Positions 50,627 to 57,391 of a stretch of 64,000 nucleotides of DNA are shown here, one piece after another; position 1 is the stretch's first letter; every line of letters starts with the position of its first letter. The position numbers were made by a program, and so were the translations under genes. Origin of the DNA: a phage; the sequence record NC_101837.1; one strand, 5' to 3'. The notes beneath the pieces were generated by a model that was not told the origin of the DNA, made no database searches, and saw nothing but the letters and a program-made list of their open reading frames with translations.

Positions 50627-51715
50627 ATGGCTGTATTTAATGCTGAGAACACCGCTCATAAAACTGGTGACTATCCGCTGTTTCTGGGACAGCAAATGGG
50701 TATGTACGACTCTATCAACAAAAAATATCCACAACTGTTTGAACTATACAAAAAACAAAAAGAGCAAGATTGGGCAGAGGATGAAGTGGATTTGTCGCAA
50801 TCTATTTCAGATTTTGTAACATGCTCAAAGTCAACTTATGACGTGATGGTGCAGACCTTGATGTGGCAATGGGAGGCTGATAGCGTTGCGGCAAGATCGA
50901 TCATCTGCCTCTTTTCACCATTCATCACTAATAGTGAGCTTTTCACTCTATTGATGAAACAGTCAGAGATTGAAGTTCTTCACGCACTAACTTACTCAGA
51001 GATTGTTAGACAATGCCTCCCTAATGCCCGTGAGATTATAGAAGAGATTCAGGAAAACCAAAACGTTCTGAGCAGATCCGGAGTTATTGTCAAATACATG
51101 CAAGAGCTTGAGGTTATTGGTGCAAAATACCGACTGGATCCTTCTAGTGTTGAAGAAGATGTTGTGCGGAAATGCATTCTTAGAGCGCTTTTTGCACTTT
51201 TAGCTCTGGAAAGTATTGAGTTTATTGCAAGTTTTGCATGCACTTTCGCAGTAGCTGAACAGGGTATCTTTGTTCAGGTGGCGCAGCTTGTTCAAAAAAT
51301 CATGCTTGACGAAATGCTACATTCGAAAGGTGATTTTGCCATCATTGATATCTTGCTTAATGATCCCGCATGGGAGAAAAGCTTCCTTGAGATAAAGGGG
51401 GAGTTAAAAGAGATTCTTGATGAAGTACGAACCAAAGAGTACGGTTGGAGTGACTATATTTTCAGCGAAGGAAGAGCGATTATAGGTCTTAACTCACCGT
51501 TGCTTAAAGAGTGGGTTGACTATAACTGCTCACCGATTTATGATTACTACGACATCGACAAAGACTTTGTGCCGCCAACAAAGGACCCGCTACCGTTTAT
51601 GCAGGTGTGGATGAAACCTTCATTGCAACAGACGGCGAACCAAGAAATGTCGAACACTGACTACCGCGTCAACACAACTGTTAACGACGCTGAAGAAGAA
51701 ATTTGGGAGTTTTAA
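50627..51715 (+). CDS. nrdB: ribonucleoside-diphosphate reductase small subunit
   Basis: Start at ATG 50627 (MAVFNAEN...) with GAGG RBS; ferritin-like diiron protein size; adjacent to nrdA. Confidence 0.8.
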   Translation: MAVFNAENTAHKTGDYPLFLGQQMGMYDSINKKYPQLFELYKKQKEQDWAEDEVDLSQSISDFVTCSKSTYDVMVQTLMWQWEADSVAARSIICLFSPFITNSELFTLLMKQSEIEVLHALTYSEIVRQCLPNAREIIEEIQENQNVLSRSGVIVKYMQELEVIGAKYRLDPSSVEEDVVRKCILRALFALLALESIEFIASFACTFAVAEQGIFVQVAQLVQKIMLDEMLHSKGDFAIIDILLNDPAWEKSFLEIKGELKEILDEVRTKEYGWSDYIFSEGRAIIGLNSPLLKEWVDYNCSPIYDYYDIDKDFVPPTKDPLPFMQVWMKPSLQQTANQEMSNTDYRVNTTVNDAEEEIWEF

Positions 51716-51718
51716 TAT

Positions 51719-51997
51719 ATGAGCTGCGAAAAATCTTTTTTCATCATCATTTACGGTAAGGATAACTGCCCACATTGTGTCAGAGCAAAAGAATTTGCAA
51801 TCAGCAAAGGTCTGCCTTTTGTATATAAGACACTTGGCGAGGGCTACACAAAAGAAGAGCTTATTGAGAAGTGTAGTCCAATCGTCCCCAGAACGTTGCC
51901 GCAGATCTTCTTAGAAAGCGATCTTGACAGTGTCCATATAGGCGGTGCAGACGATTTCATCTCTTTTGTTAAGAATGGTTTTGGAGAGAAAAAGTGA
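51719..51997 (+). CDS. glutaredoxin/NrdH-like redoxin
   Basis: 92 aa; CPHC active-site motif (YGKDNCPHCVRAKEF). Confidence 0.7.
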   Translation: MSCEKSFFIIIYGKDNCPHCVRAKEFAISKGLPFVYKTLGEGYTKEELIEKCSPIVPRTLPQIFLESDLDSVHIGGADDFISFVKNGFGEKK

Positions 51998-52854
51998 AAG
52001 TTGTAAAACGGGACGGTAGAGAAGAGTTTTATAACGGAATTAAGGTGATCAAGGCGGCAGAGTCCGCCTTACTTGAGTCTGGACATACTGAAGAAGAAGC
52101 TTACCGGATAGCTTGTGCAGTTAATGAAGTTGTTGCTAACAATCTACCAACCGACCAGTGCACGATCTCTGTAAAAAATATCCATATCCTTGTTGAAGAT
52201 GCTCTTATGGATATGGGTTTAAAATGTGCAGCCAGAGAATACATCCAGTATAGACAGACAAGAGATAATAACAGAGAGGCAGGTGGAAAACTGCTTGCAG
52301 ATATTAGTGGCTTCTTGGATCGAACTTGTGATGAATTTACAAAAGAAAACGCAAATAAGCCTACTAATCATGTACACACTCATCGCGACCTGCTTGCAGG
52401 CATCCTTAGCAAACACCTTGCATCAACACAGATCCTGCCAGACCGTGTTTCAGAAGAGCACAATAAAGGCTTCATCCATGTGCATGATCTTGACTACTTG
52501 ATCAGTCCGTTAACAAACTGTTGTTTGGTAAATTATCCAGATATGTTGGAAAACGGATTCAACATTGGCAACGCCCATGTCAGTAAGCCGAAGTCAATAG
52601 GGGTTGCAACAACAATCCTTAGTCAAATCTCTAGCGCGGTAGCTAGTGCTCAATATGGTGGTCAGACTATGAGCCATATTGATCATTATCTGGCACAGTA
52701 TGCTGAAGCAACCTATGAGAAGAACCTTAAATTTTGCCAGGAACATTGGTTGCCGGATGCTGAAACTGTTGCAATGCAAATGACAGATAAAGACGTGTTT
52801 GACAGCATGCAGACGTTGCTTTATCAGATCAACACACTAACCTCGGTAAACGGT
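51994..52854 (+). CDS. nrdD: anaerobic ribonucleoside-triphosphate reductase NrdD, exon 1
   Basis: GTG start; ATP-cone (VVKRDGREEF), conserved class III RNR segments; frame hits stop only because intron begins at 52855. Confidence 0.8.
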
Positions 52855-53111
52855 TAACAAACTGGCCGTTTTAAAACTCTGCTAACCTCAGTATGAGGGG
52901 TCAGCTGATCGCTGGCTAACGGGGAACGCTAAGGCGAAAGCTATGCCAATCCCGTGACTAGCTTCACAAGGAGTGAGGCGGTTGTAACGACTAACCTTTT
53001 GGTGTAGGGATTATGGAAGATTCCGAAACGCAGGGGTCTGATTAAGAATCACACGGTGTGATTTCAGGCAAGAGATAGTCTGGCCTTGTGGAAACATAAG
53101 GGTGGGGACCG
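52855..53111 (+). other. group I self-splicing intron (ORF-less) interrupting nrdD
   Basis: 5' exon ends in U (52854); intron ends in G (53111); internal guide GCCGUU (52865-52870) pairs with exon AACGGU including U.G; P7-like GACUAG/CUAGUC-type elements; NrdD sequence ...NTLTSVNG|QTPFITLS... continuous after removal. Confidence 0.75.
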
Positions 53112-54374
53112 CAAACCCCTTTTATCACATTAAGTTTAGGTTTGGACACTTCGGTCTTTGGTAGAATGATTACCAAAAATTACTTGAAAGTCCACAAAAT
53201 GGGTCTTGGTGAAGAACGTATCACACCTGTGTTCCCTAAAGTGCTGTTCTTCCTGGAAGAGGGTGTCAACATGAACCCTGGGGATCCTAACTATGATTTG
53301 AAACGATTAGCTCTGGAATGCTGTGCAGAACGTATCTATCCTGACTTCGTATCTGTACCACTAAATAGAAAAGTGACAGGCTCGACAGATGGCAAAGTAA
53401 CTAGCATGGGTTGCAGGAGTTTTCTTAGCAAATACAATGACTTGGAAACAGGCGAGGAGAAATACCTTGGCAGATTTAACTTAGGCGTTGTTAGCCTTAA
53501 CCTGCCAATGATTGCGGCAAAAGCTAAGACGGAAGGTGTTGATTTCTTTGCAGTTCTTGACGAATACTTGGATCTTGCATATGAGGCTCACCTTGTAAGG
53601 GTTAACCGTCTAAAAGGAACAAAGGCAGGGCAGAACCCCATCATGTGGTGTGAAGGCGCTCTTGCTCGCCTGGATCCTGAAGAGAGTATTGATAAACTCT
53701 TCTATGACGGGTACGCTTCCATCAGTATTGGGTATATTGGTGTGTATGAAACCTGTCAGATTTTGGGCAGAGAGGGTGACAAGGCTTTAGCTCTTGGAAT
53801 CCTTCAGCACATGAGAGATGCTTGTGAGCGATACAAGAAGGAAAGTAGACTAGCATTTAGCTTGTACGGCACTCCTTCTGAGAGTCTATGCTATAAAGCT
53901 GCAACCTGTCTGGATCGTGAATATCCGGAAGTGTTGAAGCACGAGCATGAATATCTCACCAACAGTTTCCATCAGCCAGTGTGGATAAATAGCTCTCCTT
54001 TTGATAAGTGGGAGTATGAGGAAGGTTTTGCTATGATCTCCTCTGGTGGCAACATTGGATACGTAGAGACACCTAACCTGAAAAACAACCTGGATGCTTT
54101 AGAGGCTCTTGTTGACTTCGGGTATAAACATATTATGTATTTTGGTATTAACCAACCTGTGGATAAATGTCTCAAGTGTGGTTTCTCTGGTGAGTTCAGT
54201 GCAACAGCTAAAGGGTTCTGCTGCCCTGCGTGCGGATGCCACGATGAACAATATATCTCAGTGATCCGAAGAGTGTCTGGATATCTTTCCAGTCCTAACT
54301 CCCGTCCTTACAATAAAGGTAAGCAAGCGGAAGTTATCGAGCGAGTTAAGCACTACGGAAGTTGTGGTTGCTGA
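53112..54374 (+). CDS. nrdD: anaerobic ribonucleoside-triphosphate reductase NrdD, exon 2
   Basis: Frame open from 53100; ITPVFPK...EEGVN..., C-terminal zinc-ribbon CLKCG...CPACG and glycyl-radical region. Confidence 0.8.
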   Translation, partial: QTPFITLSLGLDTSVFGRMITKNYLKVHKMGLGEERITPVFPKVLFFLEEGVNMNPGDPNYDLKRLALECCAERIYPDFVSVPLNRKVTGSTDGKVTSMGCRSFLSKYNDLETGEEKYLGRFNLGVVSLNLPMIAAKAKTEGVDFFAVLDEYLDLAYEAHLVRVNRLKGTKAGQNPIMWCEGALARLDPEESIDKLFYDGYASISIGYIGVYETCQILGREGDKALALGILQHMRDACERYKKESRLAFSLYGTPSESLCYKAATCLDREYPEVLKHEHEYLTNSFHQPVWINSSPFDKWEYEEGFAMISSGGNIGYVETPNLKNNLDALEALVDFGYKHIMYFGINQPVDKCLKCGFSGEFSATAKGFCCPACGCHDEQYISVIRRVSGYLSSPNSRPYNKGKQAEVIERVKHYGSCGC

Positions 54375-54438
54375 TACTTGACAAAAGCCACAAGGATGTG
54401 GCACTATACAGATGTTTAGGGAAGTTAGGAAACAAGAA

Positions 54439-55404
54439 ATGGCTAAATTATCAACAGAAGAGTTTATAGAGAAGGCGAAAATCATTCACGGTTATAAATA
54501 CGATTACACGAAAACAGTGTACGTGGATTGCTATGCGAAGGTTTGCATTACCTGCCAAATCCATGGGGATTTTATGCAAGCACCTTGTAAACACTTGCAA
54601 GGTCGTGGTTGTCCTTTTTGTGCAAAACTTTCTCGTGCTGCAAAGTGTAATAAAGGTCTTAAATTTGTAGAAAGGGCCAAAGAAATCCATGGAGATAAAT
54701 ATGACTACTCTCTCGTATACTACAAGACTTGCAAAGACAGGGTAGAAATAATCTGCAACACTTGTGGAAATCACTTTACACAGACACCTGATAACCATAT
54801 AAATTTGAAAAGAGGTTGTCCAGTTTGCAAGGGGTCAAGAATCTCACAAAGTAAAACATCACCACACGAAAAGTGGGTTGAGTCCATAAGAAGTAGAAAT
54901 CCTTATGTTGAGATATTGGAAGAAATTATTGGGTGGGATAAGAAAGTCCTGTGCTGCTGTAAAGGTTGTAGCCACACATGGTTAACCGTACCAAGCAGTC
55001 TTAAGCAGGGACATGCTTGCCCTAGATGCGCTAAAACAGGATTTTTATCACACGATAACGGAAAACTCTACATTATGGTTGATGATCCAGAAGTACCTAC
55101 ATTTATGAAAATAGGGGTCAGTCATAATGAAAGTAAGCGAAGAGACCAGATACTTAAAAGTGCACAAAGATCTAGAGCTGGTATCCGCGATCTTCACATA
55201 GTGAAAACGTTGGAAGGATCAACTGAAAACATGCTGGCTGTAGAAAAATCTATGCACAAAGCCTTCAGTAAATATAAAATAAACTTCCCTGTAAAATTTG
55301 ATGGTAGTACCGAATTCTTTAACTACAGACCTGAAGTGTTCAGTATGGTAGAATCAGCGCACAGAGAGATTTGTTGTAAACATAGGACAGGTAATAACCT
55401 GTAG
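54439..55404 (+). CDS. GIY-YIG-superfamily (T5orf172-like) nuclease with N-terminal zinc-finger repeats; putative free-standing homing endonuclease
   Basis: C-terminal GKLYIMVDDPEVPTFMKIGVSHNESKRRDQIL resembles T5orf172/MUG113 motif; N-terminal repeated IHGxKYDY...CxxC...GCPxC units; start at ATG 54439 (AGGA RBS). Confidence 0.55.
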   Translation: MAKLSTEEFIEKAKIIHGYKYDYTKTVYVDCYAKVCITCQIHGDFMQAPCKHLQGRGCPFCAKLSRAAKCNKGLKFVERAKEIHGDKYDYSLVYYKTCKDRVEIICNTCGNHFTQTPDNHINLKRGCPVCKGSRISQSKTSPHEKWVESIRSRNPYVEILEEIIGWDKKVLCCCKGCSHTWLTVPSSLKQGHACPRCAKTGFLSHDNGKLYIMVDDPEVPTFMKIGVSHNESKRRDQILKSAQRSRAGIRDLHIVKTLEGSTENMLAVEKSMHKAFSKYKINFPVKFDGSTEFFNYRPEVFSMVESAHREICCKHRTGNNL

Positions 55405-55452
55405 AGCCATATATCAACCTTTAAACATGTTATAAACTAAAGGAGGTGCAGC

Positions 55453-55569
55453 ATGTCATCAGGCATTTATAAAATTTGCAAGTGTGGTTGTCGTTGCAAT
55501 CTTCGTTGGTGCAAGGCACTGGACGATTTTATTTGGCATTGCCCTGAATGTGATACGGAGTATCTATGA
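55453..55569 (+). CDS. small cysteine-rich (zinc-ribbon-like) peptide
   Basis: 38 codons, strong AAAGGAGGTG RBS, 8 Cys (CKCGCRC...WHCPEC), stop overlaps nrdG start (ATGA); below ORF-track size cutoff. Confidence 0.4.
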   Translation: MSSGIYKICKCGCRCNLRWCKALDDFIWHCPECDTEYL

Positions 55570-56039
55570 ACATTGTCGGATACACAGAAGTATCTTACAC
55601 AGAAGGGCCAGGTATTAGAACTGCCTTGTGGGTATCTGGGTGCCCACACGCTTGCCCTGGTTGCTTTAATCAGGCATTTTGGTCAAAAGATAAGGGGAGG
55701 GAGTTCACTGAAGAAGATTTGCAAAAAATCTTGTCAGATCTGGATAACCCGTCTGTGTGCGGTATCTCTCTGCTGGGTGGAGAACCCTTAGCATACTATA
55801 ATGAGCCAGGTATTATTAGCCTGATGGAGAAAATTAAGGAAAAATTTGGTGACAAGAAAACTATTCTTGTATATACTGGGTTCACATTTGACCATATCTC
55901 TAGTGATGTTCTTAAACTGGCTGATATCATCATTGACGGTAAGTATGTAAAAGATTTACCAACCAAGAAACCGTTCCGAGGCAGTGATAACCAAAGAATG
56001 TTTAAAAAAGTATCAGGCGGTTGGGTTCAGGTAGACTAG
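55566..56039 (+). CDS. nrdG: anaerobic ribonucleotide reductase activating protein
   Basis: Radical-SAM cluster motif CPHACPGC (CxxxCxxC) near N-terminus; 157 aa; adjacent to nrdD. Confidence 0.85.
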   Translation: MNIVGYTEVSYTEGPGIRTALWVSGCPHACPGCFNQAFWSKDKGREFTEEDLQKILSDLDNPSVCGISLLGGEPLAYYNEPGIISLMEKIKEKFGDKKTILVYTGFTFDHISSDVLKLADIIIDGKYVKDLPTKKPFRGSDNQRMFKKVSGGWVQVD

Positions 56040-56042
56040 TTG

Positions 56043-56072
56043 TTGACAAAGCTTTGTTTAGATAGGTATAAT
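56043..56072 (+). promoter_or_regulatory. sigma70-type promoter (AGTTGTTGACA family)
   Basis: TTGACA (56043-56048), 18-bp spacer, TATAAT (56067-56072), then TATCG; drives small basic ORF and downstream genes. Confidence 0.5.
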
Positions 56073-56103
56073 TATCGTAAAATGAAAGCAGAGGAGGTGC
56101 CAA

Positions 56104-56217
56104 ATGGCTAAAAAAGCCTTGAAGAAGGCGTACAAGAAAGAGATTGCGCTTGAGCTTAAGAAAAAACACAAGCGTGAAAAGAAACATCATGAAGATGAAG
56201 AGGGGGTGCAACAGTGA
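56104..56217 (+). CDS. small highly basic peptide
   Basis: 37 codons (MAKKALKKAYKKEIALELKKKHKREKKHHEDEEGVQQ), GAGGAGGTG RBS, stop overlaps GTG start of next ORF. Confidence 0.35.
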   Translation: MAKKALKKAYKKEIALELKKKHKREKKHHEDEEGVQQ

Positions 56218-56564
56218 CACAAGAACGTATCGATTTGGCTAATAAGTTTGTAGACCTCATTTTGCCACGGTTAGTTACTCAACATGCAGATGCTATTTCT
56301 ACTAATCTTGATGGCTTACGCCTAATGCTGAATCGCACAGATGACCCTCGTATTCGGGCTGATTTAGAAGCCTCTGCCAACAAACTGGAAAAGTTCTTGC
56401 AAGTAGACACGCAAGAAGCCTTGCACAAGATTATGGTGGAAGGTTTCTCTAAAGAATTTACCATTAAAGAGCTTAAGGAGCTGATCCACCAAGAAGAGAT
56501 GAATATCCGAGTTCAGGCTGTTGCAAGCAGCATGGAAGCGGCTATTGAAAAACTGTTGCAGTAA
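56214..56564 (+). CDS. hypothetical protein
   Basis: 116-aa ORF (GTG start), predicted helical. Confidence 0.4.
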   Translation: MTQERIDLANKFVDLILPRLVTQHADAISTNLDGLRLMLNRTDDPRIRADLEASANKLEKFLQVDTQEALHKIMVEGFSKEFTIKELKELIHQEEMNIRVQAVASSMEAAIEKLLQ

Positions 56565-56602
56565 AAGTACTTGGCACATCTCAATCTGAAAGGAGTCCCA
56601 AC

Positions 56603-57391
56603 ATGGGTCGAGCTAAAGAAACAAAACGCATGCGTGATGAAGCTAGAGAGGCTCGCAAATCTGATCGCCTGCGTAAGGCTGCTGAGAAATTTGCTGACGA
56701 AAGAGAGCACACCGCTCCAGCTCTCCGACCAATGAATAAGAAGCAGCAAAAGTATCTTGATTATCTAGGGTCACGTAAGATTATTATTGTAAACGGCGTG
56801 TTTGGATCCGGTAAGACATTTATGGCATCTGCATATGCAGGTGATCTTCTGCGTAAGAACGAGATTGATAAGATCATTGTTGCACGTCCTTACGTCCAGA
56901 CAGGAAAGACTTCAGGATTTAAACCCGGAAATGCAATGCAGAAACTGTGGCCCTATCTTCGAAGCATGATGGACACGATTTGTCGTCGTGTTGGCAAAGG
57001 TGCTTTTGCCGCAATGCTGGGAGACGGTCAGAACAGTCGTATCGAGATTTGTGAAGTTGAAAGCATTCGTGGTCGTAGTTTCGATGAGCGATGCTTTGTC
57101 CTGATTGACGAGGCACAGCAAACTAACCCTGAAGAAATGTTGTCAATTATCACAAGGATCTCTGATCAAGCCACCCTTGTAATTATGGGTGATAATAGCC
57201 AACGTGACATCCCTGGTAAATCTGGCCTTGCATGGGTGACGGATTTCTTTACTCGTCATCCAGATCCTGAGGTTGGAATGATCAGCTTTGATAGTCCAGA
57301 CGATGTCGTTCGTTCCGGGTTGGGTCGTCAAATCGCACTCAATCTTATTGAGGATCGTGCAAATCATATTTGGACCCCTGTTTCCGAGTAA
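56603..57391 (+). CDS. phoH: PhoH-like ATPase
   Basis: Walker A GVFGSGKTF, Walker B-like VLIDEAQ, PhoH-family length (262 aa). Confidence 0.75.
   Translation: MGRAKETKRMRDEAREARKSDRLRKAAEKFADEREHTAPALRPMNKKQQKYLDYLGSRKIIIVNGVFGSGKTFMASAYAGDLLRKNEIDKIIVARPYVQTGKTSGFKPGNAMQKLWPYLRSMMDTICRRVGKGAFAAMLGDGQNSRIEICEVESIRGRSFDERCFVLIDEAQQTNPEEMLSIITRISDQATLVIMGDNSQRDIPGKSGLAWVTDFFTRHPDPEVGMISFDSPDDVVRSGLGRQIALNLIEDRANHIWTPVSE

Follow-up and report, generated by a model that had tools for sequence, protein, structure and literature searches.

A candidate portable zinc-ribbon mini-gene lodged between nrdD and nrdG in Vequintavirus coliphages

Introduction

What is the 38-codon, cysteine-rich reading frame that ends on the start codon of nrdG, and does its place between the two genes of the class III (anaerobic) ribonucleotide reductase (RNR) mean that its product works with that enzyme? 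We address this question in a stretch of phage DNA of 64,000 nucleotides (the window; sequence record NC_101837.1), in which a first-pass annotation had picked out the reading frame as an unannotated gene translationally coupled to nrdG, with a product that might be a partner of the anaerobic RNR system. Here we call the reading frame the mini-gene and its product the mini-protein. Small helpers encoded in nrd clusters include YfaE, a 2Fe-2S ferredoxin of the class Ia system, and NrdI and NrdH of the class Ib system; we know of no dedicated small helper for class III RNR.

Results and discussion

Anatomy of the mini-gene and its junction with nrdG

The mini-gene, which encodes a seven-cysteine mini-protein of PHROG 20137, occupies positions 55453..55569 (+, stop codon included). 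It runs from an ATG at 55453 to an in-frame TGA at 55567-55569 and its product of 38 aa is MSSGIYKICKCGCRCNLRWCKALDDFIWHCPECDTEYL. Its Shine-Dalgarno sequence, AAGGAGGTG at 55440..55448 (+), is indeed as strong as had been proposed, being a 9-nt complement to the 3' end of 16S rRNA. The GGAGG within it ends at 6 nt from the ATG, which is a normal spacing, and AGGAG(G) is found at an equal distance from the mini-gene ATG in all relatives.

Downstream, the stop of the mini-gene lies over the start of nrdG (55566..56039, +), which encodes the class III RNR activase of 157 aa (Pfam Fer4_12, E 9.5e-43, and Radical_SAM). This overlap, also claimed by the first-pass annotation, can be read directly from the sequence as ATGA at 55566..55569 (+), the mini-gene TGA and the nrdG ATG having three bases in common. 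The same ATGA occurs in phages of the window type and in a sister lineage, and with a DNA ligase gene as the downstream partner in the podophage vB_EcoP_ACG-C91 (hereafter ACG-C91). The last codons of the mini-gene, ACG GAG TAT CTA, contain a GGAG in codons T35-E36 (55557..55560, +) that forms a ribosome-binding site for the next gene, with a 5-nt spacer to the nrdG ATG. Codons were read for 12 relatives, all of which encode E36 by GAG and none by GAA, and the E36 residue is kept in 16 of 16. Given this GGAG inside the mini-gene, coupling is not the sole route to nrdG translation. Translational coupling, as claimed, may operate where the ATGA overlap occurs (window type, sister lineage); the claim is weakened by nrdG having its own GGAG and by the overlap being missing from 33 of 117 Vequintavirus records. 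A programmed frameshift fusion to NrdG, whose gene lies in the -1 frame, was set aside after a check by eye in which no canonical slippery heptamer was visible near the end of the mini-gene.

Coding status and conservation

We compared 16 different nucleotide versions of the mini-gene, obtained from GenBank, IMG/VR, metagenomes and Logan assemblies. The mini-gene frame is the only frame that is free of stops in all 16 relatives, and within 27 indel-free core codons of the 16 versions the variable sites are distributed over codon positions 1/2/3 as 8/3/19. Pairwise Nei-Gojobori dN/dS ratios (calculated for 12 of the 16 versions) ranged from 0.03 to 0.2, and synonymous sites are saturated in comparison with the sister lineage. 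Judged from these sequence comparisons, the mini-gene is clearly a genuine protein-coding gene under strong purifying selection.

The sister lineage, known from contigs of ~133 kb, encodes 53-54-aa forms of the mini-protein with a Lys/Glu-rich N-terminal tail; identity to the window is ~84% for the mini-protein core, 52-55% for NrdG and 82% for NrdD. Invariant positions across the family comprise the seven cysteines, NLRW of the first predicted strand, L23-D24-D25, I27-W28, P31 and E36-Y37. H29 is replaced by Tyr in three relatives (ACG-C91, L013 and L030) and is thus no conserved ligand.

Distribution and annotation

The window belongs to Vequintavirus, the genus of rV5-like E. coli myophages, with which this region shares 95-99% identity. 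A tblastn search with the peptide returned 121 phage records at an identity of at least 80%, nearly all of them at 87-97% over the full length. The mini-gene is present in ~119 of ~120 Vequintavirus records, and a neighbouring core gene (PhoH-like) was found in 120 records; as these two counts are about equal, the mini-gene is essentially universal in the genus. Conservation in related phages had been put forward as a check on whether the reading frame is real, and its outcome is affirmative: the frame is kept in essentially every Vequintavirus genome, in addition to being the sole open frame among the 16 compared versions. Within Vequintavirus and the sister lineage its position is always between nrdD and nrdG. 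Scans of IMG/VR and metagenomes yielded Vequintavirus-like contigs and ACG-C91 only, and the E. coli chromosomes that we searched gave no match.

Two sets of database records bear unexpected source labels. About 18 GenBank 'Campylobacter phage' records (MG0656xx) share 95-97% identity with this region of an E. coli Vequintavirus, and the sole plasmid match, in PLSDB, is a 137.5-kb E. coli 'plasmid' (CP057073.1) in which the mini-gene adjoins nrdG. These records are probably mislabelled or contaminant Vequintavirus genomes.

The mini-gene had been described as unannotated, which is correct for the size-limited list of reading frames available to the first-pass annotation and does not hold for public databases. 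Many relatives in GenBank annotate it as a 117-nt CDS for a 'hypothetical protein' (for example I29_105, bas55_0180 and the CDS of rV5), and the annotated CDS of rV5-like relatives are 87-97% identical to it and occupy the same genomic position as in the window. The mini-protein also matches the phrog_20137 HMM over its entire length (E 2e-30, 105.5 bits, residues 1-38 against profile positions 1-38 of 38). RefSeq and PHROG both label it 'ribonucleotide reductase', a label that is without homology support in the sequence searches described below and that appears to have been taken over from the neighbouring genes. In the literature, including the rV5 genome paper (PMC3606486) and the Certrevirus CB7 paper (PMC7344957), we found no mention of the mini-gene.

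Cysteine pattern, homology searches and predicted fold

The first-pass annotation counted eight cysteines arranged like a small zinc ribbon (CKCGCRC...WHCPEC). The count is seven (C9, C11, C13, C15, C20, C30 and C33), and the ribbon-like arrangement fits two invariant knuckles and the ribbon likeness of the medium-confidence structural models. Four cysteines form the N-terminal cluster C9-K-C11-G-C13-R-C15 (55477..55497, +), in which we propose the first zinc knuckle together with spare cysteines; all four are invariant in the family alignment and in ACG-C91, and the cluster takes the form C-x2-C-x-C-x-C in the 41-54 aa variants (SophiaRose and P0001-P0007). The fifth invariant cysteine, C20 (55510..55512, +), closes the NLRWC strand, which corresponds to the first strand predicted by AlphaFold2 (AF2; residues 16-20). 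The proposed second knuckle is the CPxC motif C30-P-E-C33 (55540..55551, +), whose C, P and C are invariant and which lies between predicted strands 2 and 3. Two knuckles as in a zinc ribbon are thereby present, C9-x-C11 and C30-P-x-C33, with all their cysteines invariant; ~15-20 residues are expected between such knuckles.

Searches for homologues outside the family were negative throughout. Pfam gave no match to the 38-aa form (E up to 1) or to the 41- and 53-aa variants (E up to 10), and no significant match to the mini-protein was found among Pfam, NCBIfam and PDB sequence profiles, including those of rubredoxin and YfaE-like ferredoxins. Profile searches returned motif-level echoes only, namely 'IWHCPKC' of eL43, the DnaJ finger and haloarchaeal CPxCG proteins. 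Resemblance to rubredoxin is limited to the CxxCG / CPxC knuckle motifs, the spacer of the mini-protein being shorter, and can be taken as a lead only. Neither the Pfam domains of NrdD (PF13597, Gly_radical) nor those of NrdG (Fer4_12, Radical_SAM) were matched. A word-indexed search of 5.8 billion proteins with the 41-aa SophiaRose variant as query retrieved 8 clusters, all belonging to the mini-protein family, and among 1.84 billion representative proteins, searched exhaustively with an HMM, only members of that family were found.

Structure prediction used a shallow alignment of 9 sequences and gave models of medium confidence. Mean AF2 pLDDT was 62.9 (window form) and 76.8 (41-aa CxxC variant); both models have a small antiparallel sheet, with the CPxC at the turn that joins the last strands, and the strands are predicted at residues 16-20, 25-30 and 35-37. 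Foldseek searches of the PDB with these models returned almost only zinc ribbons as best matches (the Rpb9/C11 N-terminal ribbon, Thermus thermophilus ZifS (8yoz) and the N-terminal ribbon of a NUDIX hydrolase (3cng)). TMq was 0.70-0.76 and rmsd 0.9-1.3 A across 32-34 columns; for so short a domain, E values were no better than 0.15. As is predicted for the mini-protein, these ribbons have two Cys knuckles flanking a small antiparallel sheet. They differ from it in sequence, with 15-30% identity over ~33 columns and no Pfam or PDB profile match between them, and in metal-site layout, the window mini-protein having a CxC as its first knuckle and three additional invariant cysteines. Taken together, the AF2 models and the Foldseek matches make a zinc-ribbon-like, metal-stabilised fold the best structural reading, and the predicted fold is most likely a zinc ribbon of the Rpb9/ZifS type. 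From the sequence, the seven cysteines may be compatible with a Zn(Cys)4 site plus three spare residues, with a binuclear site or with an Fe-S cluster, and the three extra invariant cysteines suggest that the metal site is perhaps no simple Zn(Cys)4.

Genomic contexts in phages that encode nrdD and nrdG

Two arrangements of the mini-gene occur within Vequintavirus. In the window type, shared with the sister lineage, the ATGA of the mini-gene lies over the nrdG start. In the rV5 or nomine type, which accounts for the 33 of 117 GenBank Vequintavirus records without the overlap and includes the type phage rV5/V5, the mini-gene stops with TAA and is followed by 152 nt and then by a 78-aa ORF (phrog_3249) that overlaps nrdG. 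The nrdG allele of the rV5 type is 53% identical to that of the window, and DNA homology between the two types ends within the last few bases of the mini-gene. Across these two nrdG alleles the mini-protein is 97% identical, with one residue different.

One genus thus holds two nrdG alleles that are only 53% identical, which can be seen by comparing nomine (L015 2000-2974) or rV5 with positions 55453-56039 of the window. The recombination breaks between the alleles lie at the mini-gene stop and in the interior of the nrdG 3' end, where the C-terminal residues are almost identical. The 78-aa ORF of the rV5-type module is called 'putative minor capsid protein' in several records, which is probably a mislabel.

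Beyond these phages, relatives that have nrdD and nrdG lack the mini-gene. In A5-4, a member of the Vequintavirinae, and in the phi92-like phage W22, the nrdD stop directly overlaps the nrdG start, and it is into a once direct junction of this kind that the mini-gene has been inserted. The mini-gene is absent, with nrdG present, from A5-4, W22, Maroon, ph2-2 and L014. In a Felix O1-like phage, a T4-like phage and an IMG/VR relative we found no Cys-rich mini-ORF ending at most 300 nt upstream of nrdG, and no functional analogues were found upstream of nrdG in the other phage groups inspected.

A homologue in a podophage and the variable slot that holds it

The one occurrence in an unrelated phage type is in ACG-C91, a podophage of the genus Vectrevirus with a genome of 43.7 kb. 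Its homologue, MSVFKICKCGCRCNLRWCKALDDVIWYCPKCNTEYL, keeps all seven cysteines and is encoded between the nucleotide kinase and DNA ligase genes (L004 3998-4108); it is 80% identical to the window mini-protein over 35 aligned residues and matches the phrog_20137 HMM at E 4.9e-23. As at the window nrdG, an ACGGAG...ATGA leads over the start of the downstream gene, in this case DNA ligase. DNA similarity to the window is confined to the ORF, from ATG to ATGAAYAT, and includes many synonymous differences (dS ~0.9-1.4, dN/dS ~0.08-0.14). We looked for nrdD and nrdG in the ACG-C91 genome and both are absent.

In Vectrevirus podophages, a variable slot with interchangeable mini-ORFs separates the nucleotide kinase gene from the DNA ligase gene. 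The slot is empty in LL11 (L022; ...GATATGAATATC...). In K1E it holds a 38-aa ribbon of the form CPNC...CHSC (L020 699-815) and in vB_EcoP_B a 57-aa ORF of phrog_15259 (L021 699-872), both unrelated in sequence to the window mini-protein and both terminating in a ribosome-binding site and an ATGA over the ligase start. Of the three slot occupants, two are zinc-ribbon-like peptides of 36-38 aa from unrelated families. The K1E and vB_EcoP_B mini-ORFs share the cassette anatomy of the mini-gene (ATG at the upstream stop, 3' ribosome-binding site and ATGA), although they are positional analogues only, and the true homologue of the mini-gene in that slot is that of ACG-C91.

The gap between nrdD and the mini-gene

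On its upstream side, the mini-gene of the window is preceded by a free-standing homing-endonuclease-like gene (54412..55404, +; phrog_681), whose product combines a T5orf172 C-terminal domain with repeated DUF4379 treble-clef fingers and which lies between nrdD and the mini-gene. The nrdD/mini-gene gap is a landing site for free-standing homing-endonuclease genes of several families: T5orf172-type in I29 and nomine, GIY-YIG in SophiaRose and DUF723 in L008, with no endonuclease gene in the gap in Murica and JeffSchatz. In relatives free of the endonuclease, homology to the window begins at 55441, which places the insertion point just 5' of the mini-gene Shine-Dalgarno sequence. The mini-gene is intact and unchanged with or without an upstream endonuclease gene.

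Alternative explanations

The gene order itself suggests, by analogy with other nrd clusters, a dedicated class III RNR accessory, which could be a zinc or Fe-S partner that gives NrdG electrons or metal, or one that stabilises NrdD, possibly acting on host NrdDG as well. This would account for the strict nrdD-nrdG position in ~119 Vequintavirus records and the sister lineage, for the ATGA coupling to nrdG in most Vequintavirus records, and for seven invariant cysteines beside a radical-SAM Fe-S enzyme. The conservation level of the mini-protein is moreover close to that of NrdD. The podophage occurrence does not speak wholly against it, since ACG-C91 infects E. coli, a host with NrdDG of its own. 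YfaE, NrdI and NrdH are, like the mini-protein, small, possibly metal-binding and encoded in an nrd gene cluster; however, the mini-protein has no homology to them, nor to rubredoxin, ferredoxin or any RNR component, and its distribution does not track nrdDG. The co-occurrence with nrdD and nrdG across phages fails both ways: all the other nrdDG phage groups that we inspected, among them close relatives in the subfamily with nrdD abutting nrdG, have nrdG without the mini-gene, and the mini-gene is found before DNA ligase in ACG-C91, a phage without nrdDG. Even inside Vequintavirus, 33 of 117 records, that of rV5 among them, have the mini-gene uncoupled from nrdG, and the mini-protein keeps 97% identity where the nrdG alleles share only 53%. 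These observations do not sustain the proposal of an anaerobic RNR partner made by the first-pass annotation, and we consider a dedicated accessory unlikely.

Two further explanations were considered. A domesticated or decaying fragment, either of a homing-endonuclease finger (DUF4379-type C-x2-C...CPxC) or of a duplicated C-terminal zinc ribbon of NrdD, is suggested by endonuclease genes of several families inserting immediately upstream and by the CxxC...CPxC pattern, with similar spacing, that endonuclease fingers and the NrdD ribbon show. Yet hhalign gave a probability of 0.45% (E 0.13) against the window endonuclease and 1.1% against the window NrdD, on which we rejected paralogy with either; there is no Pfam DUF4379 (PF14311) match, the mini-gene is intact with and without an endonuclease gene, and strong purifying selection is incompatible with decay, so that an origin as a relic is very improbable. 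The peptide could instead be incidental to a cis-acting ORF, serving as a ribosome-loading leader for nrdG or as a Cys-codon-rich attenuator at a hairpin and T-run (55506-55530). Pointing that way are the ATGA overlap with the nrdG GGAG inside the mini-gene, a terminator annotated inside the mini-gene in the Murica record, a 7-pair hairpin followed by ACGATTTTAT (55506-55522, from a pattern scan) and alternating Cys codons just upstream of it. What varies freely among relatives, however, is the synonymous sites, and what is conserved is the amino acids; the mini-gene stays intact when uncoupled from nrdG, and ACG-C91 has lost the T-run and kept the protein. Terminator-like sites number 6 against 4.1 +/- 2.4 in shuffles and are thus not enriched, the RNA fold of the 171 nt at 55430-55600 has a z of -0.30, no better than shuffles, and Rfam (E up to 1, positions 51000-57000) gives no match at the mini-gene. 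On the weak unenriched hairpin, the fold score, the Rfam result and the loss of the T-run we rejected the leader-peptide or attenuator reading, which we regard as scarcely credible. An RNA element or terminator as such was likewise dismissed, the Murica terminator being the weak hairpin at 55506-55522 with a site count not above shuffles.

A portable accessory gene as the preferred reading

We favour, at a probability of roughly 60%, the reading that the mini-gene is an autonomous zinc-ribbon accessory gene, portable and lodged in the nrdD-nrdG gap. On the sequence data, it is a genus-core gene of Vequintavirus; it would be translated into the 38-residue seven-cysteine mini-protein, which is predicted to fold as a metal-stabilised zinc ribbon with the N-terminal CxC/CxxC cluster as knuckle 1 and the CPxC as knuckle 2; the three further invariant cysteines could bind a second metal or form a shared cluster. 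The gene behaves as a self-contained cassette, with its own Shine-Dalgarno sequence at the 5' end and, at the 3' end, a GGAG and ATGA that may restart translation of the next gene. This cassette came to lie between nrdD and nrdG, genes that overlap directly in related phages, and in the window it would be co-transcribed with the nrd operon, where the ATGA overlap and the internal GGAG imply that nrdG translation may start by re-initiation or from the GGAG. The mini-protein most likely binds a macromolecule that E. coli infections have in common, which would be a host factor or else a conserved component of DNA or nucleotide metabolism; we infer action through binding a partner, and both known contexts (the nrd operon and the ligase of ACG-C91) are blocks of nucleotide/DNA-metabolism genes. 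It is probably no dedicated NrdG subunit, as the lack of co-variation with nrdG alleles, the absence from nrdDG phages elsewhere and the presence in ACG-C91 argue against one.

Some observations count against this reading. Its constant nrdD-nrdG position is also what a class III RNR link would predict, and ACG-C91 represents one transfer event in one genome, whose host still has NrdDG. A rather improbable reading, which would carry more consequence, is that a seven-cysteine protein with a binuclear zinc or Fe-S centre represents a first small helper dedicated to class III RNR, acting on conserved NrdD or NrdG surfaces of both phage and host; this would explain both the fixed place in the nrd operon and the survival in a podophage relying on host NrdDG.

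The mini-gene is already in public annotation and in PHROGs, its predicted fold is of the commonest small metal-binding kind, and it can be viewed as one uncharacterised member of that kind; its cross-family occurrence and cassette design are neat and not surprising for phage mosaicism. If the portable accessory gene is the true explanation, it adds another uncharacterised phage micro-protein of a very common fold, and the value is mainly practical: the 'ribonucleotide reductase' label in databases would be corrected, and a stop/start overlap with an enzyme gene would serve as no evidence of partnership. The cassette design would let the mini-gene enter tightly packed genes of unrelated coliphages with the downstream gene not silenced. 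Its weight would be greater if the target of the mini-protein is dNTP synthesis under anaerobic conditions, or a host function common to both phage types.

Neighbouring features of the nrd region

The nrdD gene of the window is split over two ORFs (region 51994-52857 / 52845-53101 / 53142-54374); the 3' part (53142..54374, +) carries the Pfam domains NRDD and Gly_radical. The nrdD gap gives a full-model Rfam match to Group I intron RF00028 (29.3 bits, E 1.5e-4) that is below the gathering score of 50. In FV3 an HNH endonuclease gene lies between the two nrdD pieces; in L009 nrdD falls into three pieces, separated by an HNH gene and by one more ORF that is uncharacterised. The NrdD of the window ends in ...VKHYGSCGC (54360-54374), with six residues and two cysteines more than the ...EKHF/EKHV ends of A5-4 and W22. 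Directly after nrdG, a perfect sigma-70 consensus promoter (TTGACA, 18-nt spacer, TATAAT; 12/12) is found at 56043-56072 (+). It is followed at 56104-56217 (+) by a Lys-rich 37-aa ORF (phrog_7670), below the size cutoff, and the ORF after that begins with a GTG that overlaps the stop of the 37-aa ORF.
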